Positions 9,966 through 51,438 of a DNA stretch of 64,000 nt are shown one piece after another. Location of the stretch: the NCBI GenBank assembly GCA_028683955.1, contig JAQUGR010000008.1, forward strand, positions 5,371-69,370, read 5' to 3'. Both the position numbers and the translations under genes were made by a program. Below the pieces are notes generated by a model. That model did not search any database, was not told the origin of the DNA, and saw nothing but the letters and a program-made list of their open reading frames with translations. Within the stretch, counting starts at the first letter, position 1. Every line of letters begins with the position of its first letter. This DNA is from Bacillota bacterium. GTDB lineage: Bacteria; Bacillota; TC1.

Positions 9966-10040
9966 TGGAGCGGAAGACGGGATTCGGACCCGCGACCCTC
10001 TCCTTGGCAAGGAGATACTCTACCACTGAGCCACTTCCGC
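9966..10040 (-). tRNA. tRNA-Gly (anticodon GCC), CCA encoded
   Basis: The reverse complement is GCGGAAGTGGCTCAGTGGTAGAGTATCTCCTTGCCAAGGAGAGGGTCGCGGGTCCGAATCCCGTCTTCCGCTCCA. It folds as a cloverleaf with anticodon loop CTTGCCAAG. Confidence 0.93.
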
Positions 10041-10044
10041 GACG

Positions 10045-10130
10045 TGGTGCGGATGAAGGGACTTGAACCCCCACGATCTTACTCACTAGAGCCTAAATCT
10101 AGCGCGTCTGCCAATTCCGCCACATCCGCA
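10045..10130 (-). tRNA. tRNA-Leu (anticodon TAG), long variable arm, CCA encoded
   Basis: The reverse complement is GCGGATGTGGCGGAATTGGCAGACGCGCTAGATTTAGGCTCTAG... The anticodon stem CTAGA/TCTAG encloses the loop TTTAGGC. A class II variable arm is present. Confidence 0.9.
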
Positions 10131-10132
10131 TC

Positions 10133-10208
10133 TGGTGATCCATCCGCGACTCGAACGCGGGACACCCTGATTAAAAGTCAGGTGCTCTACCGACTGAGCT
10201 AATGGATC
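10133..10208 (-). tRNA. tRNA-Lys (anticodon TTT), CCA encoded
   Basis: The reverse complement is GATCCATTAGCTCAGTCGGTAGAGCACCTGACTTTTAATCAGGGTGTCCCGCGTTCGAGTCGCGGATGGATCACCA. Confidence 0.93.
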
Positions 10209-10212
10209 ATCT

Positions 10213-10288
10213 TGGGGTGGATGATGGGATTTGAACCCACGACAACTAGTACCACAAACTAGCGCTCTACCACTGAACTACACCCACC
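10213..10288 (-). tRNA. tRNA-His (anticodon GTG) with extra 5' G(-1), CCA encoded
   Basis: The reverse complement is GGTGGGTGTAGTTCAGTGGTAGAGCGCTAGTTTGTGGTACTAGTTGTCGTGGGTTCAAATCCCATCATCCACCCCA. Confidence 0.9.
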
Positions 10289-10358: not shown

Positions 10359-11153
10359 TTATTTCATAATTTCAAAATCTGATTTAGGGGCTCCACATAA
10401 AGGACATGTGTAACTGTCTGGCAAGTCTTTAAACTCTATTCCTTCAACTGCAGGATCATGTACATATCCACATACTGTGCAAATATATTTTTCTCCACCT
10501 TCCATGTTTTCCACCTCTTTCTCTTCTTTTATAATTTCATTAACTTGAATTTTTTTCCCACTTTTGATTAATCTAAAGTCACTATAACTTAATGGTAAAA
10601 CATCTTTTTTATTAACATTTATAAAAGCGTCTTCAATAGAACAAACCATTAACCAATGTGTTCCAACATCCATTTTATTTTCCACTTTACAAATCATACC
10701 AGATAATGCATCATCTAACAATACTGGCATACTATTAATTTCATTGTATTGTATTTTTTCAAATTTGTTACGATCTCTTCCTGAAGAAAAACCGAAATTT
10801 GAAATCATTTGAAATCCATCTTGGCCGATTATATTAATTACTAATTTATTTGATTCTAGAACTAATTCGGTTGTGTAATTATTTTTATTTAAACATACGG
10901 CTATCTGACTTGGTTCACTAGTTAGTTGGAAAACTGTATTTGCTGCTTGTCCATTTATCTTACCTTTACTTTCAGTAGTTATTACAAACATTCCATATAT
11001 AATTTGACGTATTGAAGTTTTAATTGCATTAGCATCTTTGTTTTTTTCTTCAACTTGTACAAAATTGGTTTTATCAACTCCACAAACTGGACAAATATCT
11101 ATAGGCTCTTGCCCTTCCATTTCATAACCGCATATTTCACATTTCCACTTCAT
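10359..11153 (-). CDS. Rubredoxin-like Zn-ribbon / flavin reductase / rubredoxin fusion (high-molecular-weight rubredoxin type)
   Basis: The N-terminus has WKCEICGY...CPVCGV. A flavin-reductase-like core occupies the middle. The C-terminus has [12 protein letters not shown]...[15 protein letters not shown] chose the second ATG (11153) because AAAGGAAG lies 7 nt upstream of it. Confidence 0.75.
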
Positions 11154-11247
11154 ATGTCTACTTCCTTTCATTTATCATATTATTTGAATTATACCATTTT
11201 TTTCAATAATAATAAATGCTACAATTATTAATAAAGGAGTTGAAATA

Positions 11248-15699: not shown

Positions 15700-17974
<2,275 letters not shown>

Positions 17975-27823: not shown

Positions 27824-28260
27824 AAATTATTATGATGGGTATAGGTACAGGTTTTATAAGTATTGCCTTAGAAGCTAGTAAAGAAGATCTTCCTATAAAT
27901 GCAATGTTAGGTTCTATTTGCTGGGCAACCTATTTATATTCTTTTCAGATCTTTGATAATACCATGTTATCGATTTTTTTAGCTTCATTTCTAATTTCCT
28001 TTTTGTCAATATATTTAACAAGAAAAATTGGTAAGCCACTTCAAGTATATTTGATTGCTGGCATAATTCCTCTCCTTCCAGGTTTAAATATTTATTATAT
28101 GGTATTTGGTTTTGTTAATCAGGATTCAAAAGAGATAATAGAAAATGCCAACCTAACAGTTCAAATATTGGCAATTATTGTTTTGAGTTTGGTGTTTGCA
28201 TCCTCAATAACAAAACTATTAAAACGGTTAAATTTTACAAAAAAAAGATCAGAGAATTAA
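27811..28260 (+). CDS. Threonine/serine exporter family protein, DUF3815 part
   Basis: This 149-aa four-TM protein overlaps the upstream gene by 13 nt. Confidence 0.7.
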   Translation: MAILEIIMMGIGTGFISIALEASKEDLPINAMLGSICWATYLYSFQIFDNTMLSIFLASFLISFLSIYLTRKIGKPLQVYLIAGIIPLLPGLNIYYMVFGFVNQDSKEIIENANLTVQILAIIVLSLVFASSITKLLKRLNFTKKRSEN

Positions 28261-28280
28261 AAATCTCTGATCTTTTTTAT
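28241..28280. terminator. Bidirectional intrinsic terminator between the exporter pair and the fdh/nuoF-like operon
   Basis: Inverted repeat AAAGATCAGAGA / TCTCTGATCTTT with flanking A and T runs. Confidence 0.75.
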
Positions 28281-28295: not shown

Positions 28296-29969
28296 TTAAA
28301 GTAAATCTTTATAATTAGTTAAAATACTAGTTATTGTAGATGGAGCTAATTGACCTAATGCGCATAATGATGCGGATTCCATCAATTGAGTTAATGAGGT
28401 TAATTTTTCTAAATTACTTTCATTACTTCCATCTTTACTTATTGTTTCTAACAATTCTGCAGCTCTCTTTGTACCTTCTCTACAAGGTACACACTTTCCA
28501 CAAGATTCCTTTATTGCATATTCCATGGATTCTTTTGCTAAGTCCATCATTGAAGTTTTTCCAGCAACCACATAAATACTTGTTCCTTCCATCACTCCAG
28601 AAATTAATCCAAACTTTAAAGGAGTATCTAAATCAACAGCTTTTTCAAGTTTATCTAATGTTAGGATAGGACCAATAGGACCACCTATTCTAACTCCTAC
28701 TAATTCTCCAATTACTCCACCTGAATAGGTATCAATAATTTCTTTTATTGTTGTATTTGTTGGTACTTCAATTATAGAGGGCGTATTTACATCTCCTTCT
28801 AATGAAATGATTTTGAAACCTGGATTTTTTGGAGTTCCAATTTCCTTATATGCATCAACTCCTAAATTAAGTACATCAGGTACATTAATTAATGTTTCTA
28901 CATTTGCTACTAAATTTGTATATACAATAGCTGCTACAGGACATACTGACATACAATTTCCACATTGTATACATATTGTTGGATCAATAATATGTCTTGT
29001 CTTTGGAGCACTTTCTATACAGGAAACTGGACAATTCTTTGCACATTTCGTACAACCTATACATTTTTCTGTAATGTAGTACTCTAATGGTTTTCCACTA
29101 ACACCAAATGATCTTACATTAACATTTTTATCACGATGTACATTAATATCTCTTTCAATATATTCATCAACTTCTACTTCTCTTGGACTAACGAAATTAT
29201 CAGCTGAGAATCTAACCTCAATATTAAAAGAAAATTCATTATTTAATACTTTTTCTCCTAGTATACCGGCTGCATACGCATCTTTAACAGCCTTTTCCAT
29301 CTCTTTTGTATAACTAGTATAAATATAACCTTGATTAGTACCAACTGAATATCCAGCAATTATCATGCCTTCTATTAGTTTAAATGGATTATCGTTAATT
29401 ATTTTTCCATCAATTGCATTATTATTGATATCAGCATTACAAATAATACCTTTATTATTAAATTCTATAATATTAGCAATAGCTTCCCACTTAATACTAG
29501 CGACAAAGCCCCCATCACCTTTACCTTTAAAACCAGAATCTTTAATAGTTTGTAAAGTATTGGCTTTAGCATGTGATAATACATTAGCTAAGGCACCAAA
29601 TCCTCCATTATCTATATATGAATCAATATCTTTGAATACGCTTAAAGATGGTATCTCTTTTTTATCTATAGCAATAATATCCTTTAAAGTATACTTCTTC
29701 TTAATTTGAGAAACATATGGTTTTTGTCTTTCTGTATATTCAACAGGTTGATCATTTAAAAATGAATAATATTGTATTAAATTATCAATTCGAGATATTG
29801 GTGCACCTAATACTTCTTCAATTAGAATAACAATATCTCTTGGAATATAACCAATTAATTCTTGTGATTTAAACAAAGTAGCCATTAAAACGCCCTTTGC
29901 TTCTCTATTATCATTCATATATTGAACTAAATTATCAACTATATCTTTATTTTTTTCTATTTCAAACAT
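28296..29969 (-). CDS. NuoF/HydB-like Fe-S subunit, atypical: degenerate FMN/NADH motifs and an inserted 2x[4Fe-4S] ferredoxin module
   Basis: NuoF-like blocks GFKGKGDGGFVASIKW, ICNAD, LIEGMIIAGY and NVETL are present. So are an SLBB-like segment and the C-terminal ESCGKCVPCREG...SLCALGQ. The insert CIGCTKCAKNCP...CIQCGNCMSVCP spans aa 297-350. The gene starts 1 nt after the fdhA stop. Confidence 0.75.
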   Translation of the reverse strand: MFEIEKNKDIVDNLVQYMNDNREAKGVLMATLFKSQELIGYIPRDIVILIEEVLGAPISRIDNLIQYYSFLNDQPVEYTERQKPYVSQIKKKYTLKDIIAIDKKEIPSLSVFKDIDSYIDNGGFGALANVLSHAKANTLQTIKDSGFKGKGDGGFVASIKWEAIANIIEFNNKGIICNADINNNAIDGKIINDNPFKLIEGMIIAGYSVGTNQGYIYTSYTKEMEKAVKDAYAAGILGEKVLNNEFSFNIEVRFSADNFVSPREVEVDEYIERDINVHRDKNVNVRSFGVSGKPLEYYITEKCIGCTKCAKNCPVSCIESAPKTRHIIDPTICIQCGNCMSVCPVAAIVYTNLVANVETLINVPDVLNLGVDAYKEIGTPKNPGFKIISLEGDVNTPSIIEVPTNTTIKEIIDTYSGGVIGELVGVRIGGPIGPILTLDKLEKAVDLDTPLKFGLISGVMEGTSIYVVAGKTSMMDLAKESMEYAIKESCGKCVPCREGTKRAAELLETISKDGSNESNLEKLTSLTQLMESASLCALGQLAPSTITSILTNYKDLL

Positions 29970-29970: not shown

Positions 29971-32646
29971 TTAGGCCTCCTTTGCTATTTTTACTGCAGT
30001 AACTTTGTACTCTGCAGTTTTAGTTACTGGGTCATATGCCGAGTTTGTTAACTCATTAACAGGTGACTCATGAAAATGGAAGGTCATATAGATTGTTCCT
30101 GGTTGAACTCTTTTAGTTATTTTAATATTAGCAGTAACTGAACCTCTCCTTGATGTTACTCTAACTATACTATCTTTATTAAGATCATACTTTTTAGCAT
30201 CTTCAGGATGTATTTCTACTCTTTCCACAGGACTAATAGCATCTAAAGTTTCTGATATTCTTGTAGATACGTTATAGTGATATAATATTCTACCTGTATT
30301 CATCAAAACAGGATACTCATCATCTACTAATTCTGCAGGTGGTAAGTATTCAATAGGCAACATAAGTCCTTTTCCTCGAGTAAATTCACCAGAATGCAAA
30401 TATTTGCTTCCTGGACTATCTAAAGTAGGACAGCCCCATTGTAATCCATCCTTCTCAATTCTCTCGTAAGTAATACCAGCATATGTTGACATAGTTTTTC
30501 TAATTTCTTCAAATATATCTTCAGCTGAAGTATAATCAAAACCTTTATAACCTAATCTTTTAGCAATTTCAGCAACCATAACCCAATCAAGCATAACACC
30601 TTTTGGTGGTTCAACAGCTTTTCTAACTCTTTGTACTCTTCTTTCAGTATTTGTGAAAGTTCCATCTTTTTCTGCATAGATAGTAGCTGGAAGAACCACA
30701 TGAGCTAACTTAGCTGTTTCTGTTAAGAATATATTTTGAACAATTAATAAATCTAAGCTAGACATTGCTTTTCTTACATGGTTAGCATCAGGATCAGTCA
30801 ATACAGGATCCTCACCCATTACATACATGGCTTTAACATCACCATCAACAATTCCATCAAGCATCTCTGGTATTCTTAGACCTAGATGGTCACTTAGTTT
30901 AACACCCCAGTGTTTTTCAAATATTTCAATGTTATCTTTGTTATCACAAGCTTTATAACCAGGGAAATAGTTAGGTAATGCACCCATGTCACAAGCTCCT
31001 TGCACATTGTTTTGTCCTCTTAAAGGATTAATTCCTGCATTTTCAAAGCCAATGTGACCTGTTAACATTCCCAGATTAGCTAAATTCATAACATTATCTG
31101 TACCAGTTGTATGTTCAGTTATGCCTAACGTATAGAATATACCTGCTTTTTTAGTATTAGCATACAATTTTGCTGCTTTATAAAGCTGGTCTTTACCTAT
31201 ACCAGTTATTTCCTCTACAACTTCTGGTGTATACTTGGCTACATTCTCTTTTAGACTTTCATAACCAGTACATCTTTCATTAATATAATCTTCATCTTGC
31301 CAGTTTTCTTCAATGATTATATGCATTAAACCATTGACTAAAGCTGCATCTGTACCAGATTTAAGTCTTAAGTGATATTTTGCCATAGTGGCTAATTCAG
31401 TTTTTCTAGGATCAATAACTATGAGTTTAGAACCTTTTTGAACTGCTTTTTTCATTTTATTTCCGATTATTGGATGAGCTTCTGTAGCATTTGAACCAAT
31501 GATGAATAACACATCATTATCTTCAATTTCTCCAATAGAGTTTGTCATTGCTCCACTACCTAATGTTGTTGCAAGACCTGCAACAGTAGGTGCATGTCAG
31601 GTTCTAGCGCAATGATCTACGTTATTAGTACCAAAACCAGCTCTAAATAATTTTTGAAATATGAAATTATCTTCATTTGTACAACGAGCAGAAGATAAAC
31701 CAGTTATGGAATCAGCTCCATATTTATCTTTTATTTCTGTAATCTTAGTAGCAATATAATCAAATGCTTCATCATATGTAGCTTCCACAAAAACGCCATC
31801 TTTTTTAATTAATGGAGTTGTTAATCTTTGTTTGCTACTAATCATATCTGAATGATATCTACCTTTTACACATAAAGAAGCTCCATTAACTGTAGCATCC
31901 TCTATTGGAGTAACACCAACTACTTTATCATCAACAACATTTAAATCAAAATTACAACCAGTACCACAGAATGGACAGGTAGTTCTAACTTTTTTGATTT
32001 TTTCAGGTTCAATATTTGCAAGTTGTTTATGAATAAGTGAACCAGTTGGGCACACACTAACACATTGGCCACATAAGCGACAATTATCTGTACTAATTGG
32101 TAAATCAAATGCAGTACCAACTTTTGTATTAAAACCTTTACCTAAGAAATCAATTGTATGAGAAATTTGAATTTGATCACAAACACTTACACACTGTCCG
32201 CATAATATACATTTATTAGGATCTCTATAATATGCTGCATTTGCAGAATCAATCTCGTAGTTTTTCTTTTCGCCTTCATAACTGCCTTCAAGAACTTCAT
32301 ATTCTTTTGCATATTCTTGAAACTTATTATTACCAACTTTAACTTGAGTAAATAAGTCTTTTGGATGATTTGAAATCAATAAGTCTAAGATATCTCTTCT
32401 AGACTTCATAACTTTATCAGAATGGGTTTGAATTACCATTCCCTCCAAAGGTTTAGTGGAACATGATGCAGCTAGGTTTTTTCTACCAGCTATTTCCACG
32501 ACACACATTCTGCATCCTGAAAATGCCTTCAATTTTTCATTATAGCAAAGAGTCGGAACATCTATTCCATTTTCTCTAGAAATTTCTAGTATACTCTTAT
32601 CAGCACTTACTTCCATCTTCTGACCATTAAGTGTAATTGAAACCAT
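29971..32646 (-). CDS. fdhA: Formate dehydrogenase alpha subunit; selenocysteine-containing (in-frame TGA at 31597-31599), with a NuoG-like N-terminal Fe-S extension
   Basis: Track ORFs 31597..32646 and 29971..31548 are in the same frame, separated only by a TGA. Read-through gives DHCART-U-HAPTVAGLATTLGSGAMTNS, the active-site context of Sec/Cys formate dehydrogenases. The N-terminus has a 2Fe-2S motif, two CxxCxxCxxxCP motifs and a MopB CPFCGTGC cluster. Confidence 0.9.
31559..31599 (-). promoter_or_regulatory. UGA(Sec) codon plus bacterial SECIS hairpin
   Basis: The minus strand reads UGA CAUGCA CCUA-CU-GUUGCA-GGUCU-UGCAAC-AACAU-UAGG. The apical part, GUUGCAGGUCU, closely matches my memory of the E. 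coli fdhF SECIS (GGUUGCAGGUCUGCACC). Confidence 0.8.
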
Positions 32647-32651: not shown

Positions 32652-33128
32652 TTATTCTCCTTTCAAAAATCTAAATTTAATAAAATTAACGATATTCATA
32701 ATATCATCAATATTAAAACAAATATTCACTAACCTACAATCAGTCAAGTTATCAGTTATTACACCAATCAGGTTACTTAAATTATAATCTATTTTTTTTA
32801 TATTTTCTCGTTTTAAATAAAATTTAGGATAAGAAAGTTTTTTAAAGCCTTCTAGAATAATTAAATCAATATCCCTTTTATTTAAATTTTCAATGATTTT
32901 TTCGGGTGTTTCATGACCTATACATAAAAATACTTCCTTAGCACCACTTTGTAAAAATAAGTTAGTATCTTTAATTTCATTTCCTGAATTTACTTTGCCA
33001 ATATGTCCATGATGCTTTATAACTGCTACCTTATAATTACGACACAGAATATTCAATATTTTACAAATCAATGTAGTTTTGCCTGAATTAGAATAACCTA
33101 CAAAAGAAACAACTGGTTTATCAATCAT
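32652..33128 (-). CDS. mobB: Molybdopterin-guanine dinucleotide biosynthesis adapter protein MobB
   Basis: The P-loop VGYSNSGKTTLI in a 158-aa protein. Confidence 0.85.
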   Translation of the reverse strand: MIDKPVVSFVGYSNSGKTTLICKILNILCRNYKVAVIKHHGHIGKVNSGNEIKDTNLFLQSGAKEVFLCIGHETPEKIIENLNKRDIDLIILEGFKKLSYPKFYLKRENIKKIDYNLSNLIGVITDNLTDCRLVNICFNIDDIMNIVNFIKFRFLKGE

Positions 33129-34351
33129 TAATATATATCCTCATCAACAAAAAAAAAGTCTACCCTATCTCCTATTTTAACAGGTTCATCAGGATTTATA
33201 ACTTTTGCCAATGCAGTATAGCTTAACATTGATTGAAGTACACCAGCATTTTGTTTGCCTGCAAGATGAATTTCATATCCATCATTACCAGTAGTTATAT
33301 ATACTCTAAGAAATCTTGTTATATTACTAAGTTTTTTAAAATTATCCATCATAATGCCAGAAAATAATTTTGGCAAATATTTATTGTAGCCCATTATATA
33401 CTTTATTGCCGGCTTAGCTATAACTTCATAAGTAATTAAACTTGCAGCTGGTGAACCTGGTAATGAAATAATCAATTTATCGCCTAATTTCCCTGCTAAT
33501 ACAGGTGTTCCAGGTTTCATTTTAACTGACCAGAAAATTTTTTCTATATTAAGTAAACTATAAACATCTTGAATATAATCAAAATCTCCAACTGAAACTC
33601 CTCCAGTAGTAATTATAACATCATTTTCTTCTAAAGCTAAATTAATTTTATCTTTTAAATCATCGATATTATCACTTGCCACACCATAATCATGAGCTTT
33701 GAGACCTAGTTCATTAATAAAAGCTAGCAAAGCATATTTATTACTATTGTAAATCTTACCCGGTGAAAGTTCCTTGTATAAATCAATAATTTCATCTCCT
33801 GAAGTTATTAATCCGATCTTAGGTAATTGAAATACTTCTACCTCAAAAACACCTATTGCAGCTAACATTGCTACTACTCCTGGTTTTATTTTAATGCCTT
33901 TTTTTACAATTCTTACACCTGATGCAACATCTTCCCCAATTTGTATAATATTTTCATCAGGCTTACCTTCTTTATATATTAAAACATAATCTGAACCACA
34001 ATCTGTATCTTCTTTTTTTATAACCAAATCACAAAATTCTGGAACCTCAGCTCCAGTCATAATTTTATATACCCCATCTGATAATAAACTAATATCATCC
34101 CCTGCTTTAATAGTACCATCTATTTTAAGTTTAACAGGATTGTTAAGACTCACACCTTTTGTATATATGCTTTTTAGGCAATAACCGTCAAATGGTGATT
34201 TTATAAAGTTAGGGATAGGTACTTTGGTATAAATGTCAGAAGCTAGAATCCTATTAAACGAGTCTTCTAGCTTGATAATCTCTTTATTTTGATGTTTAAT
34301 TTTAGATAGGATAAGCTCAATTGCTTTTTGAGTATCAATAAATTTTTCCAT
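33128..34351 (-). CDS. moeA: Molybdopterin molybdenumtransferase
   Basis: The 407-aa product has the MoeA domain order and the MoCF motif TTGGVSVGDFDY. Confidence 0.9.
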   Translation of the reverse strand: MEKFIDTQKAIELILSKIKHQNKEIIKLEDSFNRILASDIYTKVPIPNFIKSPFDGYCLKSIYTKGVSLNNPVKLKIDGTIKAGDDISLLSDGVYKIMTGAEVPEFCDLVIKKEDTDCGSDYVLIYKEGKPDENIIQIGEDVASGVRIVKKGIKIKPGVVAMLAAIGVFEVEVFQLPKIGLITSGDEIIDLYKELSPGKIYNSNKYALLAFINELGLKAHDYGVASDNIDDLKDKINLALEENDVIITTGGVSVGDFDYIQDVYSLLNIEKIFWSVKMKPGTPVLAGKLGDKLIISLPGSPAASLITYEVIAKPAIKYIMGYNKYLPKLFSGIMMDNFKKLSNITRFLRVYITTGNDGYEIHLAGKQNAGVLQSMLSYTALAKVINPDEPVKIGDRVDFFFVDEDIY

Positions 34352-34376
34352 ATTTTACCTACAATCAATTTTTGAA

Positions 34377-34955
34377 CTAATTAGATCTACTTCCTGGTTT
34401 TACAATTGGTAATCCTGCTTTACATAAAGGACAATCATCAGCTTCATATGACTTAACATCCATTGATAGACAAGCTTCAACTCTTGCGCCCAAATCAACT
34501 TTACCATTACTTCTATCTACTAATAAAGCTACACCGACAACTATGCCATCATTTTCTTTAACAATATCAATAACTTCTTTAACACTTCCACCAGTTGTTA
34601 CAACATCTTCAACAACCAATACTCTTTGACCAGGTTCTATAGTAAAATTCCTTCTAAGTGTCATTTTACCATCAACTCTTTCAGTAAATAATGATGGAAC
34701 ACCAAGCTGTTTTGCCATTTCATAAGAAATTACAATTCCACCCATTGCTGGTCCAACAACTAAATCAACTTTTTCATTTTTAAAAGCTTCAGCTAGATGA
34801 CCACATAATGCTGAAGTATATTTTGGTTCCATTAAAACTCTGGCACATTGAATATATCTATCACTATGTCTTCCTGATGTTAATCTAAAATGACCTTCTA
34901 GTAATGCTCCAGATTCAATAAATATTTTTTTAATTTCTTCTGTTGATAATTTCAT
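34377..34955 (-). CDS. pyrE: Orotate phosphoribosyltransferase
   Basis: The PRPP motif VLVVEDVVTTGGS in a 192-aa protein. Confidence 0.93.
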   Translation of the reverse strand: MKLSTEEIKKIFIESGALLEGHFRLTSGRHSDRYIQCARVLMEPKYTSALCGHLAEAFKNEKVDLVVGPAMGGIVISYEMAKQLGVPSLFTERVDGKMTLRRNFTIEPGQRVLVVEDVVTTGGSVKEVIDIVKENDGIVVGVALLVDRSNGKVDLGARVEACLSMDVKSYEADDCPLCKAGLPIVKPGSRSN

Positions 34956-34964
34956 GTTTACCTC

Positions 34965-35681
34965 CTATATTCCTTCCATTTCAGCAACTATTTTTTTTGC
35001 TGCTTCTTTAATATTTTCTGCCTTTGTAATTGGTCTACCAACAACTATATATGTAGATCCACCTTTTATAGCTTGTCCTGGTGTAGTAATTCTTTTTTGG
35101 TCGCCAACATCTCCACCTGCAAGTCTTACTCCTGGTGTAACGGTAATAAACCCATCATGACATGCTTTTTTAATTATACCAGCTTCTAAAGGAGAACAAA
35201 CAACACCATCTAATCCTGCTTTGTCTGTCAATAAGCCAAGATGTTCTACCATCTCTTTTGGACTTTTAGTATAACCAATTTCTTCAACTTCATTATCTCC
35301 TAAACTAGTTAAAATAGTTACTGCTATAAGCATTGGAGCTTTAATACCAAATTCATTAGCAGTTTTAACACTTGTTTCTTTAGCTAATTTCATCATTTCA
35401 TAACCGCCTTGACTATGAACATTCATCATATCTACCCCAGATTTAGTTAAAACACGAACTGTTTCGCTTACTGTGTTGGGAATATCATGTAATTTAAGAT
35501 CAAGGAAGACTTTACCACCTCTTTGTTTAATATATGCTATTATATCATTTCCCATACTTGTATATAATTGCAAACCAACTTTGAACATCCCAATTTCATC
35601 TTTTAATTCATTTACTAAATATTCAACTTCTTCAATTGTATCCACATCAAGTGCTACAATTAATCTTTCTTTTGCGTTCAT
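34965..35681 (-). CDS. pyrF: Orotidine 5'-phosphate decarboxylase
   Basis: LIVALDV, DLKLHDIPNT and IVVGRPIT are present. I set the start at the ATG at 35681, which is preceded by GGAGAG. Confidence 0.93.
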   Translation of the reverse strand: MNAKERLIVALDVDTIEEVEYLVNELKDEIGMFKVGLQLYTSMGNDIIAYIKQRGGKVFLDLKLHDIPNTVSETVRVLTKSGVDMMNVHSQGGYEMMKLAKETSVKTANEFGIKAPMLIAVTILTSLGDNEVEEIGYTKSPKEMVEHLGLLTDKAGLDGVVCSPLEAGIIKKACHDGFITVTPGVRLAGGDVGDQKRITTPGQAIKGGSTYIVVGRPITKAENIKEAAKKIVAEMEGI

Positions 35682-35694
35682 TATAACTCTCCTT

Positions 35695-36603
35695 CTATTT
35701 GTGCGCAGCACCTATAATATCAGTATAGGATGACAAACCTTTATTATCCAAATATTCATTTATGCCTTTAATAATATCAATTGGTATATAGGGATCTACA
35801 AAATTACCAGTTCCAACACTTATTGCAGAAGCCCCAGCCATAATAAATTCTAAAGCATCTGTAGTGTTCATAATTCCACCCATACCAATAATAGGTATAT
35901 TAACGGCTTTGTAGACTTCATAAACCATTCTTAAAGCTACTGGTTTTATAGGAGGACCTGAATAACCCCCGATAATATTATTAATGATAGGTCTTTGTTT
36001 TTCAACATCTATAGCCATGCCTATTAAAGTATTAATCATTGAAATTATATCAGCACCACCACTTTCTACTGCTTGGGCCATAATTGCAATATTTGTTACA
36101 TTTGGTGATAGTTTCATAATTATCGGCTTTGAAGTATTATTTTTGACCATCTTTGCTACATCAAAAGCCATATTAGGGTCTGTACCAAAGGTAATACCAC
36201 CCTCTTTAACATTAGGACAAGAAATATTAACTTCTAAGGCACTCACTCCATCAATACTCAATCTATCAGCCATATAACCATAATCATCTATTGAACTACC
36301 TGATATATTGACAATTATTTCTGTACCATAAGTTTTAGCTTCAGGTAAAATATTATTAATAAAGTCATCTACTCCGCCATTTGCAAGACCTATAGAGTTA
36401 ATAATACCACCACTAGTTTCTACTAAACGCTGTGGTTTATTCCCAACTCTTTTTTCAGGTGTAGTACCTTTAACCATAATACCACCTAATAAACTAAGGT
36501 CATAAAAATCTTTAAATTCTTTTCCAGAACCAAATGTACCTGAAGCAACTGTCACAGGGTTCTTCATTTTAAATTTTCCAAGATTACATTCAAGTTTATT
36601 CAT
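35695..36603 (-). CDS. pyrD: Dihydroorotate dehydrogenase B, catalytic subunit
   Basis: NPVTVASGTFG, NISCPNV and GMGGI are present. I set the start at the ATG at 36603, which is preceded by AAAGGAGG. Confidence 0.93.
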   Translation of the reverse strand: MNKLECNLGKFKMKNPVTVASGTFGSGKEFKDFYDLSLLGGIMVKGTTPEKRVGNKPQRLVETSGGIINSIGLANGGVDDFINNILPEAKTYGTEIIVNISGSSIDDYGYMADRLSIDGVSALEVNISCPNVKEGGITFGTDPNMAFDVAKMVKNNTSKPIIMKLSPNVTNIAIMAQAVESGGADIISMINTLIGMAIDVEKQRPIINNIIGGYSGPPIKPVALRMVYEVYKAVNIPIIGMGGIMNTTDALEFIMAGASAISVGTGNFVDPYIPIDIIKGINEYLDNKGLSSYTDIIGAAHK

Positions 36604-37363
36604 CAAAAGATACCTCCTTTGACTTAAATACTGGACCTTCTTTACAAACTCTTTTATATGTACCATCTGTCATCTTACATACACAACTTAAACAAGCTCC
36701 AAGGCCACAACCCATATAGGCTTCTAATGATAACTCAAGATTCACCTTATCTTCAAGTGTTTTCAAGTACTTGAGCATAGGTTCAGGCCCACAGGCATAA
36801 GCTTTATCAAAAGTATTTAACTCATAATTACTTAAGATTGCTTCAACTGTTCCTTTTATGCCTAAACTACCATCCATAGTAGCTACTGTTAAGGTCCCAA
36901 GTTTTGAGAAATAATCTAGAGCATATGAAGTATCTTTACTACTAAAACCCAAGACAATTTCTATTTCATTACCTGATTCTTTTAATTTAAGTCCTAAATC
37001 ATAAAGAGGTGCAATTCCTATTCCACCGCCAATTAATAGACATTTATTATCAAATTTCTTAACTGTAAATCCAGTCCCAAGTGGACCAATTATGTCTAAT
37101 TGTTGATTAGCTTTCAGTTCAGACAGATTTTTAGTTCCTGGTCCCTTAACTTGATAAAGTATTGAAATTGTTTCAGCTACTTTATCTACTTCAAATATAC
37201 TAATAGGTTTTCTAAGTAATGGAACAGAGCCAGTCTTTATTTCTAAAAACTGGCCTGGTTTGGCTATATCTGCAATATTTTTCTCATTGATTTTCATTAA
37301 ATAAACAAAGTCTTCAATTATAGGTTCATTAGAAATAATTATTCCATTATTTTTAAAAATCAT
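36596..37363 (-). CDS. pyrK: Dihydroorotate dehydrogenase B, electron transfer subunit
   Basis: An FAD/NAD-binding fold plus the C-terminal 2Fe-2S Cys cluster CGLGACLSCVC...C. Confidence 0.9.
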   Translation of the reverse strand: MIFKNNGIIISNEPIIEDFVYLMKINEKNIADIAKPGQFLEIKTGSVPLLRKPISIFEVDKVAETISILYQVKGPGTKNLSELKANQQLDIIGPLGTGFTVKKFDNKCLLIGGGIGIAPLYDLGLKLKESGNEIEIVLGFSSKDTSYALDYFSKLGTLTVATMDGSLGIKGTVEAILSNYELNTFDKAYACGPEPMLKYLKTLEDKVNLELSLEAYMGCGLGACLSCVCKMTDGTYKRVCKEGPVFKSKEVSFDE

Positions 37364-37365
37364 AA

Positions 37366-38649
37366 TTAAATCACCTTACCATCTTTTAAGGCAAAGTCAC
37401 CTTTTACAATAGTATGTACTACTTCACCTTCTAGATTCCACCCTTTAAATGGTGTGTTTCTACCCATTGAATAAAACACATCTGGATTAACTACCCATTC
37501 TTTATTAGGATCAAAGATAGTTATATCTGCATCTGCACCAATCTTTAATTCTCCCCCAAGTTTAAAAATCCTACCTGGATTATTTGCCATTTTTTCCACT
37601 AAAGTGTTGTAAGATATTATTCCAGTTTTCACAAACTTTGTATACATTAAAGAAAGTGAAGTTTCTAGGCCTACTACACCAAAAGGAGCATATGCATATT
37701 CTACTTCTTTTTCCCATCTAGCATGTGGTGCATGATCAGTAACAATTAAGTCAATAGTTCCGTCAATAATACCAGCAAGTAGAGCTTCACGGTCATCTTC
37801 ACTTCTAAAAGGAGGATTAATTTTAGTTGAAGTATCAAAAGATTCCACAACTTGATCTGTTAGAACAAGATGTTGTGAAGTAACCTCTGCTGTAACATTA
37901 ATTCCTTTTATTTTTGCTTCTCTAACTAATTGCACTGAATTTTTACTGCTCATATGTGCTATATGAACCTTGCCTCCAGTCATTTTAGCAAGAGCTATAT
38001 CTCTGGCCACTATTAAATCTTCAGATTCTCTTGGTATCCCTTTTAAACCGAGTATAGTTGAATAGTACCCCTCATGTATAAAACCTCCATTGGCCATACT
38101 CTCATCTTCACAATGTTCAATCAATATAAGGTCGAATTTTTTTGCATATTCCAAAACTCTTCTAGTAATATATGCATTTTTAACTGGTTTACCATCATTA
38201 CTTATAGCTACGATACCTGCTTCTTTCATATCGCCCATTTCAGTTAGTTGATCAGAATCAATATTTTTAGTAGCTGCTCCAATAACTTTTAAATTGACTT
38301 TTGCACCTCTTGCTTTTCTATCTAATGCTTCTACTATAGTTCTATCATCAATTGCTGGCTTAGTATTTGGCATACAAGCAACTGTAGTAAATCCACCTTT
38401 AGCTGCTGCCGCTAATCCAGTTTGGATTGTTTCTTTATGTTCAAAACCTGGTTCTCTTAAATGAACATGCATATCAATAAGACCAGGAAACACCTTAAGA
38501 CCTTTAGCATTAATTATTTCACATTCAACATTCGCATCTATATTTTTCTCTATTTTACTAATTTTATCATTAACAATTAAGATATCCATAATATCATCTA
38601 ATGAATTTGCTGGGTCGATTACATGTCCATCCTTAATTAATTTCATCAC
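37366..38649 (-). CDS. pyrC: Dihydroorotase
   Basis: The metal motif DMHVHLREPG and, later, TDHAPH. Confidence 0.93.
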   Translation of the reverse strand: MMKLIKDGHVIDPANSLDDIMDILIVNDKISKIEKNIDANVECEIINAKGLKVFPGLIDMHVHLREPGFEHKETIQTGLAAAAKGGFTTVACMPNTKPAIDDRTIVEALDRKARGAKVNLKVIGAATKNIDSDQLTEMGDMKEAGIVAISNDGKPVKNAYITRRVLEYAKKFDLILIEHCEDESMANGGFIHEGYYSTILGLKGIPRESEDLIVARDIALAKMTGGKVHIAHMSSKNSVQLVREAKIKGINVTAEVTSQHLVLTDQVVESFDTSTKINPPFRSEDDREALLAGIIDGTIDLIVTDHAPHARWEKEVEYAYAPFGVVGLETSLSLMYTKFVKTGIISYNTLVEKMANNPGRIFKLGGELKIGADADITIFDPNKEWVVNPDVFYSMGRNTPFKGWNLEGEVVHTIVKGDFALKDGKVI

Positions 38650-39568
38650 TAGTTTTCCCTCCTAACATCATGAATAATAGAGCCATTCTAACCGCAACCC
38701 CATTAGTTACTTGTTCATCAACAACTGATCTTGGGTGTTCATAAACTTCAGGCATTATTTCAACACCTCTGTTCATAGGACCTGGATGCATTATAATTGC
38801 ATCTTCTTTAAGTAGTTCTACTCTTTTGGAAGTTAATCCCCAAAATTTATTATATTCTACCAAACTTGGTAGTAATCCACTAGACATTCGTTCCTTTTGA
38901 AGTCTTAAAACATTTACTACATCTGCACCTCTTAATGCTTTGTCAACATCCGTATATACTTCAACACCCATTTTTTGCATTTCAACAGGTATTAGTGTTT
39001 CTGGAGCTACTACTCTAACCTTTGCTCCATATTTTGTTAATCCCCAAATATTACTTCTTGCAACTCTACTATGTGCTACGTCTCCAAGTATTGTAACTGT
39101 TAGATTACCAAGATCACCTTTTTTATCTTTCATTGTAAACATATCTAATAATCCTTGTGTAGGATGTTCATTCATTCCATCTCCAGCATTAATAATTCTA
39201 GCTTTGGTATTTCTTCCAAGAAAATGTGGAGCACCACTTGCACCATGTCTCATAACAAATAGTTCTATGCCCATTACTTCTAAAGTAATAGCCGTGTCTA
39301 TTAAAGTTTCACCTTTTTGGACACTACTTGTACTAACTGCTAAATTAGTACAATCTGCACTAAGGTATTTTGCTGCCAATTCAAAGGAGCTTTTTGTTCT
39401 TGTGCTATTTTCAAAGAATAATGTGGCCATTGACTTACCACGTAATGCAGGGGCTTTTTTTATGTCTCTCTTAATTATATCTTTCATAGGAATAGCGATT
39501 CCCAATATTTCATCAATTTCATCTGTAGATATATTCCTTAATCCAAGTAAGTCTTTAGCTTTTAGCAT
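38633..39568 (-). CDS. pyrB: Aspartate carbamoyltransferase catalytic subunit
   Basis: STRTKSSFE, HPTQ and HPGP motifs are present. Confidence 0.95.
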   Translation of the reverse strand: MLKAKDLLGLRNISTDEIDEILGIAIPMKDIIKRDIKKAPALRGKSMATLFFENSTRTKSSFELAAKYLSADCTNLAVSTSSVQKGETLIDTAITLEVMGIELFVMRHGASGAPHFLGRNTKARIINAGDGMNEHPTQGLLDMFTMKDKKGDLGNLTVTILGDVAHSRVARSNIWGLTKYGAKVRVVAPETLIPVEMQKMGVEVYTDVDKALRGADVVNVLRLQKERMSSGLLPSLVEYNKFWGLTSKRVELLKEDAIIMHPGPMNRGVEIMPEVYEHPRSVVDEQVTNGVAVRMALLFMMLGGKTSDEIN

Positions 39569-40129
39569 CTATTCATCCTCCTCTAATAATTCCTTAATTA
39601 CAACTTTATCGATACCATCAATTTCTTTAAGGAGAACATCAATTTTTTCTCTTTTAGATGTTGGTACATTTTTACCTACAAAATCTGCTCTAATTGGCAA
39701 TTCGCGATGACCTCTGTCAACCATAACAACTAGTTGTATAAGTTCAGGTCTTCCCATATCTATAATGGAGTCTAAAGCTGCTCTAATTGTTCTACCTGTA
39801 TATAGAACATCATCGACTAAAATTATTTTTTTACCTTTTATACCAACTGGTATAACAGTTTGATGAATTACAGGTTGTTCTGTTAAAGATGTTAAATCAT
39901 CTCTATAAAGATTTATATCTAAAACACCAATAGGAAGAACAATACCATGGATTTCTTCAATAGTTTTTTTAAGTCTTTCTGCTAAAGGCACACCTCTAGT
40001 TCTTATACCAAGAATAACAGCATTATCTAAAGTCTTATTTTTTTCCAAAAGTTCATGAGCTATTCTTTTTAATGCTCTATCCATCTGATCCTCATCCATA
40101 ATAACTGCTTTTTCAATAAATTTTTTCAT
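39569..40129 (-). CDS. pyrR: Bifunctional pyr operon regulator / uracil phosphoribosyltransferase PyrR
   Basis: The 186-aa product has the PRT motif [13 protein letters not shown]. It is the first gene of the pyr operon. Confidence 0.93.
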
Positions 40130-45492: not shown

Positions 45493-45853
45493 TCTCTTTA
45501 ATTTTAATTTTTTCACCTTTTTTGAGATTTTCAAAACTTCCTGCATTACCCTCAATACAAAAAATGCTATTTTTATGAATTTTAGAAATTCTCCAAGGTA
45601 ACATATTTTTATATATTTCTATAATAGTATTATTCTTATCTATAAATATAACATCTAAATTAATTTTCATAAAAAAAGTATGAATACTATTACAAGGTTT
45701 TATTAATAACCCTTCATCTTTATTTAAATTTTTCTTCCACATTAACCCTTTAAGCCTTTTAAAATAACTATCAGCAATTACCACATTAGCCAATAAATTT
45801 TCATTAACTTCAGTTACTATTTGAATAGTTTTAATTCTTTTCATTTTCAACAT
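45485..45853 (-). CDS. DUF192 domain protein; last gene of the Tad operon
   Basis: RLKGLMWKK......GLLIKPCNSIHTFFMKINLDVIFIDKNNTII fits the DUF192 pattern. The start is uncertain (ATG at 45853 or 45844, or the track start 45892). It overlaps the upstream gene. Confidence 0.7.
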   Translation of the reverse strand: MLKMKRIKTIQIVTEVNENLLANVVIADSYFKRLKGLMWKKNLNKDEGLLIKPCNSIHTFFMKINLDVIFIDKNNTIIEIYKNMLPWRISKIHKNSIFCIEGNAGSFENLKKGEKIKIKEKA

Positions 45854-46931
45854 ATCTAAATAGTATATCTCCTGAATCAAATTTACTTCCATCCACTATA
45901 AAGTGTTTACTATAAACAAATTCACCAAAATTTAAAATTCCAGGTTCTGTTGCAGAAACTCTAAGTTTTATAGGATTACGATCTTTATTAAAAGATCTAT
46001 ACCCTTCCAAAAAGTGTGGTAAATTCATTTCAGAAACTTTTTCAATAATTAATTGAAAAGTATAAGAACTATCACCAATGTAAAAATCAGCCTTCTTATA
46101 ATTCTGATCAAAACTAATCATTAATCTTCTTTTATGTTTTCTTTTTAAATCCAAATAATTTATAAATTTTTCATCTTCTCTACTAGTTGGTTTATAATAA
46201 AGTTTTCCTTTGATAATTAATCTAGATTTAATCCTGAATCCATATAAAATTTGTCCTATTGCAAAAAACATAAATAATAATATTGTAAAACCACCAATAA
46301 TTAATTGTAAAATTGTCAGATTACCAAAAAAACCATTTATAATAGATGTTGATTCAGGTGTTATTGAATTCTGAACCTTGTTATTAATAAAAGTTTTTTC
46401 GACAGGTTCCAAAGTCCACTTTTGGTTTGCTGTTCCTGCATATGGTTCTGCGGTTACTAAGCTTCCAGCATTTAAATCTCCTTCTACCGTAGTTATCGCG
46501 GCATTGGTTAAATAATTAATAAAAACTACTGTTCCATCACTTAAAATTCTAATATCCCATAACTGATTAAACTTACTAGAAAAGTCCCATTGTTGTAAAA
46601 ATGCTCCTGGTTCTTTAGAATCATCCTTAATCTCAATAATTTTAAGATTTTTTTCCATACTTAAAACATATCGTAAAGAAACATCTTTACTTATTTTAAA
46701 TACTTGATTAGAATTATCGGCCCCAAGTGCTTGGACGCATAAAGCCCCATTAGCATTACTACCATCTTGAATATCAAGATATAATCCGCTATATACATTT
46801 CTGATTTTATATAATCCATTATCAATATTATTAAACTCTGCTTTCACATTATTATTTCCTGTAAATATATACATACAGCCTATAAATAATAAAAATATTA
46901 ATAATAGAGATAATTTTGAGAATAATTTCAT
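45831..46931 (-). CDS. Membrane protein: signal/anchor, ricin-type beta-trefoil lectin ectodomain, TM helix, and an uncharacterised 134-aa cytoplasmic domain
   Basis: Q-x-W/F repeats lie at aa 76-78 (QVF), 123-125 (QLW) and 170-172 (QKW). Hydrophobic segments span aa 5-24 and 201-232. The SD AGGAAAGGA lies upstream, and the gene starts 15 nt after the tadC stop. Confidence 0.7.
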   Translation of the reverse strand: MKLFSKLSLLLIFLLFIGCMYIFTGNNNVKAEFNNIDNGLYKIRNVYSGLYLDIQDGSNANGALCVQALGADNSNQVFKISKDVSLRYVLSMEKNLKIIEIKDDSKEPGAFLQQWDFSSKFNQLWDIRILSDGTVVFINYLTNAAITTVEGDLNAGSLVTAEPYAGTANQKWTLEPVEKTFINNKVQNSITPESTSIINGFFGNLTILQLIIGGFTILLFMFFAIGQILYGFRIKSRLIIKGKLYYKPTSREDEKFINYLDLKRKHKRRLMISFDQNYKKADFYIGDSSYTFQLIIEKVSEMNLPHFLEGYRSFNKDRNPIKLRVSATEPGILNFGEFVYSKHFIVDGSKFDSGDILFRYVENEKN

Positions 46932-46946
46932 ATTATAGTCCTTTCC

Positions 46947-47879
46947 TTATAGAATACCTTTTAAACTGTCCATAGCATTTAATGCTGCTGGACCAAGTAT
47001 AACTATAAATATAGCGGGAAACATGAAAAAAAGCAACGGGAATATCATTTTTATTGGTAGTTTCATAGACTTTTCTTCTGCTCTTTGTTTTCTTTTTTGT
47101 CGTAACATATTGGATTGAATCCTTAACATATTAGCTATGTTTGATCCTAGCTGCTCAGCTTGGATTATGGCTGTTATAAAACTATTTAAATCTTCAACAC
47201 CAGTTCTTTTATAAACTGCTCTTAGTGCTTCTTCTCTTTCTTTACCTTTTGAAATATCATCTAAAGCCCATTTTAACTCATTACTTAATTCACCTTTAAT
47301 TTTATCAGTTGCTCTTTTCATTGACATATCAAAGCCAAGACCAGCTTCAACAGAGACATACAATAAATCTAGAATATCAGGTAATTTATTTTGTATTTCT
47401 AATGCTCTATTTTTCGCTTTTGTTCTTAATTGAAAATAAGGTAATAAAAATCCTATAATAGCTATAAGCAACATATATAACGGATTTAGAAAACCAATCA
47501 TTATAAAAACTGCCCCAAAAATGATTAGCATTAAAAAGGAAACAACAAATTGTTGGGCTAAAATATTACTAGTTGTCATCTTCTTATAATTTCCAGACTG
47601 ATAAATAATATTTTCATAATTATCCTTCATTGATTGCGGAGTCATCCTTGCTAGAAAATTAAGAAATTTTTGATAAATTGGTGTCCCAACACGATCCAAG
47701 AATGATTTTCTAAACTCATCATCTTCAGGATTTTCGCTAGCAAGAGGTTGAATTTTATTAAGTCTATCTTCCATTAAATATTTTTTTTGAAATATACTAG
47801 TATATAATAATATAAATAATGAGGCTACTGTCAAACCACCTGCAAATGCAATTAAAACTGCCATGTTATAGTACCTCAC
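46947..47879 (-). CDS. tadC: Tad pilus platform protein TadC (T2SS-F family)
   Basis: The 310-aa product has the T2SSF-type domain LPDILDLLYVSVEAGLGFDMSM flanked by TM helices. Confidence 0.85.
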   Translation of the reverse strand: MRYYNMAVLIAFAGGLTVASLFILLYTSIFQKKYLMEDRLNKIQPLASENPEDDEFRKSFLDRVGTPIYQKFLNFLARMTPQSMKDNYENIIYQSGNYKKMTTSNILAQQFVVSFLMLIIFGAVFIMIGFLNPLYMLLIAIIGFLLPYFQLRTKAKNRALEIQNKLPDILDLLYVSVEAGLGFDMSMKRATDKIKGELSNELKWALDDISKGKEREEALRAVYKRTGVEDLNSFITAIIQAEQLGSNIANMLRIQSNMLRQKRKQRAEEKSMKLPIKMIFPLLFFMFPAIFIVILGPAALNAMDSLKGIL

Positions 47880-47882
47880 TTT

Positions 47883-48875
47883 CTAGACTTTTAAATCTAA
47901 TAGTTTTACCAAAATAAATATTCCTATGGCTTGCATTAATAATGCAATTCCTAAAAGAACATTACCTATTAAAGTTGTAAATAAAGGCATCATGAAATCT
48001 TTATTTAATAAATATAATATTATTACAATGAAAAATGGTATACCACCTACAACTAAGGCTGATAATTTAGCTTGAGCAGTCATAGTTCTTATATCCCCTT
48101 TTAGTTTTACTCTTTCTCTTATTGTATTTGAAATTGTATCTAAGATTTCTGACAAATTACCACCAACTTGTCTCTGAATAAGTACGGCTGTTACCAATAT
48201 TTCCACATCTTCATCATCAGTTCTTTCAGCAAAATCTTTTAAAGCTTCTTCCATATCTTTGCCAAGAACATTATCATGAACAACTTTATTAAAGTCATCA
48301 GATATTGGTGGTTCCATTTCTTTTGCTGCAATTACCATAGATTGATTAAAACTTAATCCTGCTCTTAGTCCATTTGCTAGAACACTCAAGGCAACTGGTA
48401 ATTGATTATTTAGTTTTTTTGCTCTTGATTTTTTAACATTTTTAACATACATAATCGGAATTTGAAAACCAATTAAAAACCCAAATATAAATACTATAAT
48501 CTTTACTAATATAAATCCATCAAATAACAAATATAAAATTATTCCTAGTATTAAGCCAATTATTATACATATACCCAACAATTCTTCCGGCTTAATTAAT
48601 AACCTTGCCCTTGATAAAAGAATTTTCTTTTTTTCAAAATACTTATCTAAAGGAACTATATTACCAATAATTCCAACAAAAGTAACTTTTTCATTTTTCT
48701 TACCAACTTTTGTTACCTCTGTTTCCTTATAATCATTACTGGCATTACCGGTAGTATATCTTTCGAGTCTATTTTTAATTACTATCTTATTTTCATTTAG
48801 TGCTATATAAATTAGTAAAAAGACAGATGTTACTAATAATGTAATAAAAAACATTAATCCTAACAAAAATTCCAC
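47883..48875 (-). CDS. tadB: Tad pilus platform protein TadB (T2SS-F family)
   Basis: The 330-aa product has LPVALSVLANGLRAGLSFNQSM and N- and C-terminal TM helices. Confidence 0.85.
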   Translation of the reverse strand: MEFLLGLMFFITLLVTSVFLLIYIALNENKIVIKNRLERYTTGNASNDYKETEVTKVGKKNEKVTFVGIIGNIVPLDKYFEKKKILLSRARLLIKPEELLGICIIIGLILGIILYLLFDGFILVKIIVFIFGFLIGFQIPIMYVKNVKKSRAKKLNNQLPVALSVLANGLRAGLSFNQSMVIAAKEMEPPISDDFNKVVHDNVLGKDMEEALKDFAERTDDEDVEILVTAVLIQRQVGGNLSEILDTISNTIRERVKLKGDIRTMTAQAKLSALVVGGIPFFIVIILYLLNKDFMMPLFTTLIGNVLLGIALLMQAIGIFILVKLLDLKV

Positions 48876-48894
48876 CTCCTAAATACTTTATTAA

Positions 48895-50250: not shown

Positions 50251-50272
50251 AATACAACCCTCTCATATACCA

Positions 50273-51433: not shown

Positions 51434-51438
51434 TGAAA

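Follow-up and report, generated by a model that had tools for sequence, protein, structure and literature searches.

The 64,000-nucleotide stretch of DNA analysed here, the window (positions 5,371 to 69,370 of contig JAQUGR010000008.1, assembly GCA_028683955.1, from a Bacillota bacterium), contains a gene for the alpha subunit of a selenocysteine (Sec) formate dehydrogenase (FDH), fdhA, and immediately after it, as the last gene of the same operon, one for a protein related to NuoF and HydB. This second protein, and what its partnership with FdhA may achieve, is the subject. It is encoded on the minus strand by a single open reading frame (ORF) of 557 amino acids starting with ATG, and the plus strand of the same interval has many stops; the initial annotation, made from the letters of the sequence, gave the interval 28296-29969 correctly though it left out the strand. 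It was also right about how closely the two genes abut. The fdhA stop, TAA at 29971-29973, is separated by just one base from the ATG of the NuoF-like gene, a GGAGG sits 8-12 nt upstream of that ATG, and the 1-nt junction is kept in 7 of 7 relative genomes.

On the other side of fdhA come two molybdopterin cofactor genes, mobB, directly upstream, and moeA, in an order conserved in six of the relatives (L001-L006). Directly upstream again, on the same strand and ~26 nt from moeA, is a run of pyrimidine-biosynthesis genes (34351-40129, minus strand) whose Pfam domains are those of aspartate/ornithine carbamoyltransferase, dihydroorotase, the Fe-S subunit of DHODH-B, dihydroorotate dehydrogenase, orotidine monophosphate (OMP) decarboxylase and phosphoribosyltransferases. 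This arrangement upstream of moeA is kept in all relatives, and co-transcription of the run with moeA-mobB-fdhA is possible. Past the end of the NuoF-like gene the hairpin listed in Table 1 looks like a bidirectional intrinsic terminator closing the operon, and downstream of it lie two convergent ThrE-family genes.

The partner, FdhA, has an in-frame TGA for selenocysteine at 31597-31599 in the context HCART-U-HAPTVAG, and the position of that TGA is conserved in L001-L006. With the halves on either side scanned separately, TIGR01591 (Fdh-alpha) gives 653 bits for the C-part and 167 bits for the N-part. The N-terminus is NuoG-like, and the sites for the [2Fe-2S], two [4Fe-4S] and Mo-domain [4Fe-4S] clusters are retained. 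A different fate has befallen the His/Cys3 [4Fe-4S] site, which at amino acids 83-103 (32337-32399, minus strand) reads HPKDLFTQVKVGNNKFQ, with all three Cys gone; the FdhA of L001 and L006 is likewise without Cys at those positions, whereas R. capsulatus FdsA and the nearest FdhA relatives (Tissierellaceae, Finegoldia) keep HPxDC-LTC-x5-C. The electron path of R. capsulatus FDH runs from molybdopterin guanine dinucleotide (MGD) through A1, A2, A3 and the A5 [2Fe-2S] cluster to B6 (N3) and on to flavin mononucleotide (FMN), with A4, the cluster of this His/Cys3 site, off that path at the dimer interface (PMC7171172), and because A4 is off the direct pathway there, its loss from the FdhA of the window would leave the chain to N3 uncut. 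As to how the TGA is decoded, a hairpin at 31545-31596 (minus strand) with GGUCUU in its loop region lies ~11 nt after the UGA, where a bacterial selenocysteine insertion sequence (SECIS) is expected; its energy is indistinguishable from that of shuffled sequences (z = -0.14) and Rfam finds nothing there.

To what family does the protein after fdhA belong? Its sequence assigns it securely to NuoF/HydB(BfuB), as had been proposed. Searched with phmmer against the PDB it matches HydB-type chains (HydB, NfnB, HoxF) at E ~1e-69 and Thermus Nqo1 at E ~1e-47, the NuoF/HydB range as a whole extending from ~1e-69 to 1e-40; NADH_4Fe-4S (PF10589) scores 81 bits; and an AlphaFold2 model, built from a 76-sequence alignment, matches T. 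maritima HydB in Foldseek at E 1e-30 with template modelling (TM) scores of 0.57-0.60. The NuoF fold and its order of domains are present, namely the Rossmann-like domain, the ubiquitin-like (UBL)/SLBB domain and the four-helix N3 domain, interrupted by an insert of 54 amino acids. The core of the model is confident, and its predicted local distance difference test score (pLDDT) is below 50-60 for residues 263-347, which comprise a remodelled loop and the ferredoxin-like module discussed below, and for residues 1-80, being below 50 throughout 263-347. Judged from its sequence as a NuoF flavoprotein, however, it would not qualify, with three of four motif tests going against it along with the curated score, the nuoF equivalog TIGR01959 giving 225.1 bits in two stretches against a cut-off of 558.65. 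Set beside the core of the bifurcating (Bfu) enzymes, it is without the FMN motifs, B2, B5 and a neighbouring BfuC gene, keeps the ligands of B1, and has those of B3/B4 at a non-canonical place.

All 14 Cys of the protein are invariant in 26 relatives, the Fe-S ligands among them accounting for 12 of 12 across the clade. Four of these, C490, C493, C496 and C536 in ESCGKCVPCREGT...SLCALGQ, are the ligands of N3/B1. The protein stops right after the N3 domain, with neither the CPAGxC (B2) linker nor a C-terminal ferredoxin domain, and the segment at amino acids 351-475 has GGPIG in place of GGPSG and carries an insertion of three residues (GVMEG).

Table 1. Coordinates in the window of the operon genes, of the domains and altered motifs of the NuoF-like protein (amino acid, aa, positions given) and of the hairpin beyond it.
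Feature	Coordinates	Strand	Basis or remark
NuoF/HydB(BfuB)-like gene, last of operon	28296..29969	-	Pfam, NCBIfam, PDB phmmer, Foldseek
N-terminal helical domain, homologous to N-half of NuoE/HydC/HylC, Cys-free, aa 1-69	29763..29969	-	Pfam 2Fe-2S_thioredx, BLASTP
Poorly conserved linker, aa 70-113	29631..29762	-	alignment, column conservation
Remodelled former FMN/NADH Rossmann-like domain, aa 114-296	29082..29630	-	Complex1_51K score, column comparison
KGKGDGGFVAS, aa 148-158	29496-29528	-	replaces glycine-rich loop
ADINNNAIDG, aa 179-188	29406-29435	-	replaces acidic NADH-contact loop
SADNFVSPREVEV, aa 255-267	29169-29207	-	replaces flavin/nucleotide motif
2x[4Fe-4S] ferredoxin-like module (BfuB B3/B4 equivalent), aa 297-350	28920..29081	-	Pfam Fer4 families
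NVET strand and helix plus ubiquitin-like/SLBB domain, aa 351-475	28545..28919	-	alignment; weak SLBB match; pLDDT 82-92
C-terminal helical domain with N3/B1-type [4Fe-4S] ligands, aa 476-557	28299..28544	-	NADH_4Fe-4S, alignment
fdhA, 891-aa selenocysteine formate dehydrogenase alpha subunit	29971..32646	-	Pfam, TIGR01591
mobB, molybdopterin cofactor gene, directly upstream of fdhA	32652-33128	-	Pfam MobB
moeA, molybdopterin cofactor gene	33128-34351	-	Pfam MoeA_N + MoCF_biosynth
Hairpin, 15-bp perfect stem between A6 and T6 runs	28241..28278	none	between convergent NuoF-like and thrE-like genes

The N-terminus corresponds to one half of HylC/NuoE. Of the 145 positions of the Pfam 2Fe-2S_thioredx profile, amino acids 17-76 cover only 4-63, and by BLASTP amino acids 2-69 are colinear with residues 5-72 of the 161-amino-acid HylC encoded beside a Tissierellaceae hylB (E 1e-12 and 3e-11). 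Canonical HylB N-termini match the complementary half of the same profile, positions 61-143, which is the thioredoxin-like [2Fe-2S] part. The claim that the first ~90 amino acids are free of Cys and resemble only the helical part of NuoE thus stands, the earliest Cys in the protein being C177. Within the clade the helical domain has 20 of 65 columns invariant; the linker that follows it, amino acids 70-113, has a mean pairwise identity of 0.40 with 0 of 48 columns invariant, and stands in the place of both the [2Fe-2S] thioredoxin-like half of HylC and the N-terminal [2Fe-2S] domain of HylB. With hylC preceding hylB, as in the canonical order, exactly this fusion would follow if a single in-frame deletion took out everything between mid-hylC and the far end of the hylB N-terminal domain, and we infer that such a deletion removed clusters C1 and B5.

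The 54-residue insert had been described as an inserted ferredoxin domain, and its limits in protein and DNA (Table 1) were given exactly; it is not, however, a new acquisition. In alignments to PDB chains, amino acids 297-348 match the C-terminal ferredoxin-like domain of HydB, NfnB and HoxF, with 114-294 and 354-555 colinear with the core. Compared with HylB-type proteins from Tissierellia, Finegoldia and Clostridia, the module is 56-71% identical to their final 55 residues, end to end and including the flanking LEYYIT...AV(I), and identity over the other regions is 32-37% for the former FMN domain, 33-40% for the UBL domain and 42-47% for the N3 domain. Its junctions are exact (...GKP(294) | LEYY...VYT(351) | N-L-V-A-N-V-E-T), and its 8 ligand Cys, as well as C317, are invariant. 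As the match to the HylB C-terminus is end to end with flanks, and as the clade is without that C-terminal domain, relocation is the preferred explanation: by its sequence the module is to be read as the B3/B4 domain of a HylB-type C-terminus moved into the loop before the NVET strand. Separate capture of a free ferredoxin gene was considered and is set aside in favour of relocation. In Bfu enzymes it is this ferredoxin-like domain, with B3 and B4, that is the site of ferredoxin reduction (PMC12018979).

What of the pocket in which FMN and NADH would be expected? It was compared column by column between 26 clade sequences and 50 canonical sequences of HydB/HylB type, and the motifs quoted in the initial annotation are all where they had been placed (amino acids 148-158, 179-188 and 255-267, and the N3 ligands). 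In the glycine-rich loop canonical RGRGGAGFP has become KGRGDGGFV in the clade, D152 and G153 being 100% fixed where canonical proteins have G-A, and P156 being replaced by V. Canonical ADEGDPGAFMD has become AD-INNN-LD with a 2-residue deletion; in the CNAD-INNNA of the window both NADH-contact Glu positions, E95 and E97 of Aquifex NuoF being such acidic contacts (PMC6560083), are gone and the Bfu AFM motif is deleted, the FMN signature motifs of Bfu enzymes being the Gly-rich loop, AFM, the Phe loop and GGPSG (PMC12018979). Further along, canonical GAGAFVCGEGTAL corresponds to S.D.FISPREVE in the clade, only the Phe of the G-A-G-A-Y/F-I/V-C-G-E-E-T-A-L motif being retained in SADNFVSPREVEV, and SPREVE being invariant in the 26 sequences. 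The window protein then carries ERDINVHR (clade consensus ERDLNIHR) where canonical proteins have EGRRGMPR, the position of the adenosine-ribose Glu (Glu-286 in Tsi NfnB) is Arg in the clade, and the RAEYP turn has been removed by a 5-residue deletion. Complex1_51K (PF01512) registers all this as 45.6 bits for the window and 45-49 bits for the clade, versus 157-161 bits for canonical relatives. An alignment of the FMN/NADH contact residues had been named beforehand as something that could overturn the proposal of a non-flavoprotein; in that alignment the contact residues are not conserved.

Yet loss of the canonical residues is not the same as decay. The ratio of nonsynonymous to synonymous substitution rates (dN/dS) is 0.10-0.26 across eight genomes. 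The remodelled segment 255-279 has a mean identity of 0.84 with 13 of 25 columns invariant, and with the Gly-rich loop (0.86) and the ferredoxin module (0.83) it makes up the most conserved regions of the protein. Within the core, conservation is lowest in the former NADH loop, 179-187 (mean identity 0.62, 1 of 9 columns invariant). Because the residues substituted in the site are fixed and rank with the most conserved of the clade, the pocket is to be read from the alignment as rebuilt into a new conserved, charged surface and not as left to decay. The description of the flavin and NADH motifs as eroded, correct in that they are non-canonical, fits the NADH loop only, since 179-187 is relaxed whereas the rest of the pocket is constrained. 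A pseudogene or decaying remnant is ruled out by the intact ORF in 8 of 8 genomes, the dN/dS of 0.10-0.26 and the invariance of the altered residues.

Only one narrow clade of uncultured Bacillota has this architecture. Of 185,579 species genomes scanned, seven contain it, and all seven are metagenome-assembled genomes (MAGs) that carry the label Bacillota, Eubacteriales or "Fusobacteria". When 1.84 billion cluster representatives were searched exhaustively with a profile, the result was one full-length match (1028 bits) and one fragment, after which scores drop to 336 bits, with the canonical matches listed all split into at least two separate stretches; intermediates between the canonical and the clade architecture were not found among those representatives. 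The gene order of the window over ~20 kb is common to all seven genomes, including L007 (CAYMDI010000017.1), which has 51% GC versus 29-34% in the others and the window, and whose NuoF-like protein is 58% identical. Among the relatives the NuoF-like protein shows 58-79% identity, versus 77-92% for FdhA. The "Fusobacteria" labels on two of the MAGs are ruled out by AtpD, which points to Bacillota near TC1 and Peptococcales: that of the window (15700-17106, minus strand) is 80% identical to AtpD of TC1, an endosymbiont living in the anaerobic ciliate Trimyema compressum, with Peptococcales at ~70%.

From where did this architecture come? The closest canonical relatives are encoded in hylC-hylB-hylA plus Sec-fdhA clusters, the layout of the G. 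acidurici-type bifurcating FDH (PMC9304861), and their FdhA is 50-68% identical to that of the window. Descent of the NuoF-like protein from the bifurcating HylB/HydB (Bfu) family is supported by these sequence relationships, in keeping with the earlier suggestion of a variant of that family. Four changes would account for it. The in-frame deletion would have left the HylB core joined to the helical first half of HylC, dropping both thioredoxin-like [2Fe-2S] domains, those of C1 and B5; the B2 linker would have been lost and the ferredoxin-like B3/B4 domain shifted from the C-terminus to the pre-NVET loop; the FMN/NADH pocket would have been rewritten as the new conserved charged surface; and hylA, together with the off-pathway His/Cys3 cluster of FdhA, would have been lost.

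Taken together, we judge it on balance probable, reasoning from sequence, that the NuoF-like protein is a flavin-free, NAD(H)-independent Fe-S subunit of a two-subunit selenocysteine formate dehydrogenase. In the best-supported reading the subunit is predicted to carry three [4Fe-4S] clusters, and the enzyme would work as a formate:ferredoxin oxidoreductase or CO2 reductase that neither bifurcates nor depends on NAD. Formate would be oxidized at the Sec-Mo/W-bis-pyranopterin guanine dinucleotide (bisPGD) centre, and the electrons would travel via the [4Fe-4S] clusters of FdhA to its [2Fe-2S] cluster, from there to the N3/B1 [4Fe-4S] cluster of the NuoF-like subunit, then to the two [4Fe-4S] clusters of the relocated ferredoxin-like module, and finally to an external low-potential one-electron carrier, ferredoxin or flavodoxin; in the reverse direction the same route would reduce CO2. 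A ferredoxin-linked wire is favoured because what is best preserved is the ferredoxin-reducing part of the ancestors, because what is most changed is the part that bound FMN and NADH, and because the parts needed for bifurcation (C1, B5, B2, FMN) are gone. A more specific form of the proposal, to be held tentatively and less probable than the general one, is that a Bfu (HylCB) core was turned into a linear wire, with the flavin pocket closed, B3/B4 in the Rossmann domain contacting B1/N3 directly, and [4Fe-4S] clusters replacing FMN and the mobile C1.

Several considerations weigh against a ferredoxin-linked, flavin-free wire. Insertion at the N-terminal end of the NVET strand may put the module across the sheet from the old flavin pocket, and the AlphaFold model is unreliable exactly at 263-347, such that the placement of the module relative to N3 is not readable from it. 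Unlinked NuoE- or HylA-like genes elsewhere in these genomes are possible, even if it speaks in favour of the wire that there is no NuoE/HydC(BfuC)-like gene in the operon or within ±10 kb in the seven genomes, and no HylA-like gene in the operon. A search of the window for ferredoxin, flavodoxin, Rnf, hydrogenase, PFL and Fhs genes found none, and what it did find was housekeeping genes and a single rubredoxin/flavin-reductase protein. Then there is the pocket itself, in which D180 of CNAD, F259, NVET (N356-T359), GGP-G (here GGPIG) and R279 survive, and in which the new residues are so highly conserved that binding of some ligand may persist.

That last thought leads to a rival in which the rebuilt pocket continues to take a cofactor or nucleotide, be it flavin in a new mode, NAD(P)H or another dinucleotide, and the protein is a substrate-binding module instead of a pure wire. 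The persistence of the residues just named is in its favour, as is the 100% conservation of S261-E266, E272-R279 and D152, a constraint that exceeds what a filled-in cavity would need. Against it stand the substitutions G152D, G255S, G257D, C261S and G262P, the change of the ribose-binding Glu to Arg, the deletion of AF(M), and the loss of the acidic NADH loop, where core conservation is now at its lowest. A new motif for nucleotide binding is not recognizable either, and the profile score is down by ~110 bits, so that we regard a ligand-binding role as unlikely.

The flavin-free wire to free ferredoxin has also to be set against one that leads elsewhere, with the subunit connecting FdhA to an unlinked enzyme such as a hydrogenase (as in formate hydrogenlyase, FHL, or hydrogen-dependent CO2 reductase, HDCR), a heterodisulfide-type module or a membrane complex. 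Modularity is a feature of Bfu-type cores, which pair with many third-substrate modules (PMC9304861), and the HylC-like N-terminal helices could, like the conserved charged surface, serve as interfaces to other proteins. But the operon ends at the NuoF-like gene and its terminator-like hairpin, no additional redox gene lies in the 20 kb that are syntenic in seven species, and the module is most similar to the domain on which free ferredoxin docks in Bfu enzymes (PMC12018979); a connecting role of this sort seems improbable. Least probable, and very doubtful, is that the subunit is mainly a structural or stabilizing remnant with its clusters off pathway, FdhA exchanging electrons directly with its carrier by way of surface [2Fe-2S] or [4Fe-4S] clusters of its own, for while vestigial redox parts are common in the superfamily (in FdsB a thioredoxin-like domain that has no cluster, and A4 lying off the path, PMC7171172; Zn in place of clusters in Tsi NfnB, PMC12018979) and the NuoF-like protein does evolve faster than FdhA, the invariance of every Fe-S ligand Cys, the standing of the ferredoxin module among the most conserved regions, the low dN/dS and the retention of the 1-nt junction in all seven genomes are at odds with it.

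Elsewhere in the window are several other features. The rubredoxin/flavin-reductase protein (10359-11171, minus strand; 270 amino acids) has rubredoxin-like ends around a flavin-reductase (RutF/HpaC-like) domain, and a part in oxygen or oxidative-stress electron transfer in an anaerobe is possible. Genes of a Tad/Flp-type pilus occupy 45831-52158 (minus strand), with RcpC/CpaB-like, ParA-like ATPase, T2SSE and two T2SSF products, and are followed by a gene for a protein with a ricin-type lectin domain. Four clustered tRNA genes and a single T-box leader (96 bits) are found at 9969-10287 and 61326-61533, both on the minus strand.

Why should this rearrangement be of interest? NuoF/BfuB is regarded as the archetypal FMN/NADH module of complex I, of NAD-linked hydrogenases, of formate dehydrogenases and of Bfu enzymes. 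If the proposal made here is true, the NuoF fold can act as a pure Fe-S scaffold, with B1 and B3/B4 under purifying selection and the flavin motifs, C1, B2 and B5 gone, and the protein would be a natural "bifurcation-site knockout" with which the routing of electrons from B1 to the ferredoxin site in Bfu enzymes could be tested. In the more specific form of the proposal, with B3/B4 touching B1/N3 directly, the enzyme would be a two-subunit, flavin-free, ferredoxin-dependent Sec-FDH of a kind not described before, built on a NuoF scaffold. In the open-access literature searched there is no description of a NuoF/BfuB without flavin motifs, of such an FDH partner or of this domain transposition, which is not proof of novelty. 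There is a practical side as well, as public annotation calls the clade proteins "NADH-quinone oxidoreductase subunit F", a label that would wrongly imply NAD-dependent formate metabolism in this uncultured Bacillota lineage. The significance is limited by the small size of the clade, known from uncultured Bacillota, and by a reading that rests on sequence.

Where, then, does the protein stand in relation to systems already known? Its nearest counterpart is HylB/HydB, that is BfuB, as in the FdhF2-HylCBA type of G. acidurici and in T. maritima HydB (PDB 7P5H/7P8N), with which it has in common the fold, the 2x[4Fe-4S] module and the B1/N3 motif ESCGKCxPCREGT...SLCxLGQ. It differs in being without the FMN/NADH motifs, the N-terminal [2Fe-2S] (B5), the B2 linker and the BfuC partner, in having its ferredoxin-like module internal and not C-terminal, and in an N-terminus that comes from BfuC/NuoE helices. 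FdsB of the NAD+-dependent FdsABG(D) enzymes (R. capsulatus 6TGA, C. necator 6VW7) offers the parallel of a NuoF-type subunit beside a NuoG-like FdhA/FdsA, with N3 expected near the [2Fe-2S] cluster, and FdsB too has a cluster-less remnant domain at its N-terminus (PMC7171172). FdsB, however, retains both FMN and the NADH site, depends on FdsG (NuoE) and is without a ferredoxin-like module, whereas the protein of the window has neither FMN motifs nor FdsG and has the module internally, and its FdhA uses Sec and is without A4. With NuoF/Nqo1, the 51-kDa subunit of complex I, the likeness is in the core fold and the N3 ligands; the differences are the missing flavin/NADH motifs, the extra Fe-S modules, the fused helical half of NuoE and the setting of a cytoplasmic FDH. 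In what it is proposed to do, the closest analogues are the HycB-type poly-ferredoxin subunits of HDCR and FHL, in which a Sec-FdhF-type subunit is likewise wired by Fe-S clusters to a low-potential partner. Those, however, are simple poly-ferredoxins unrelated to NuoF, whereas the putative wire of the window would be a gutted flavoprotein fold.

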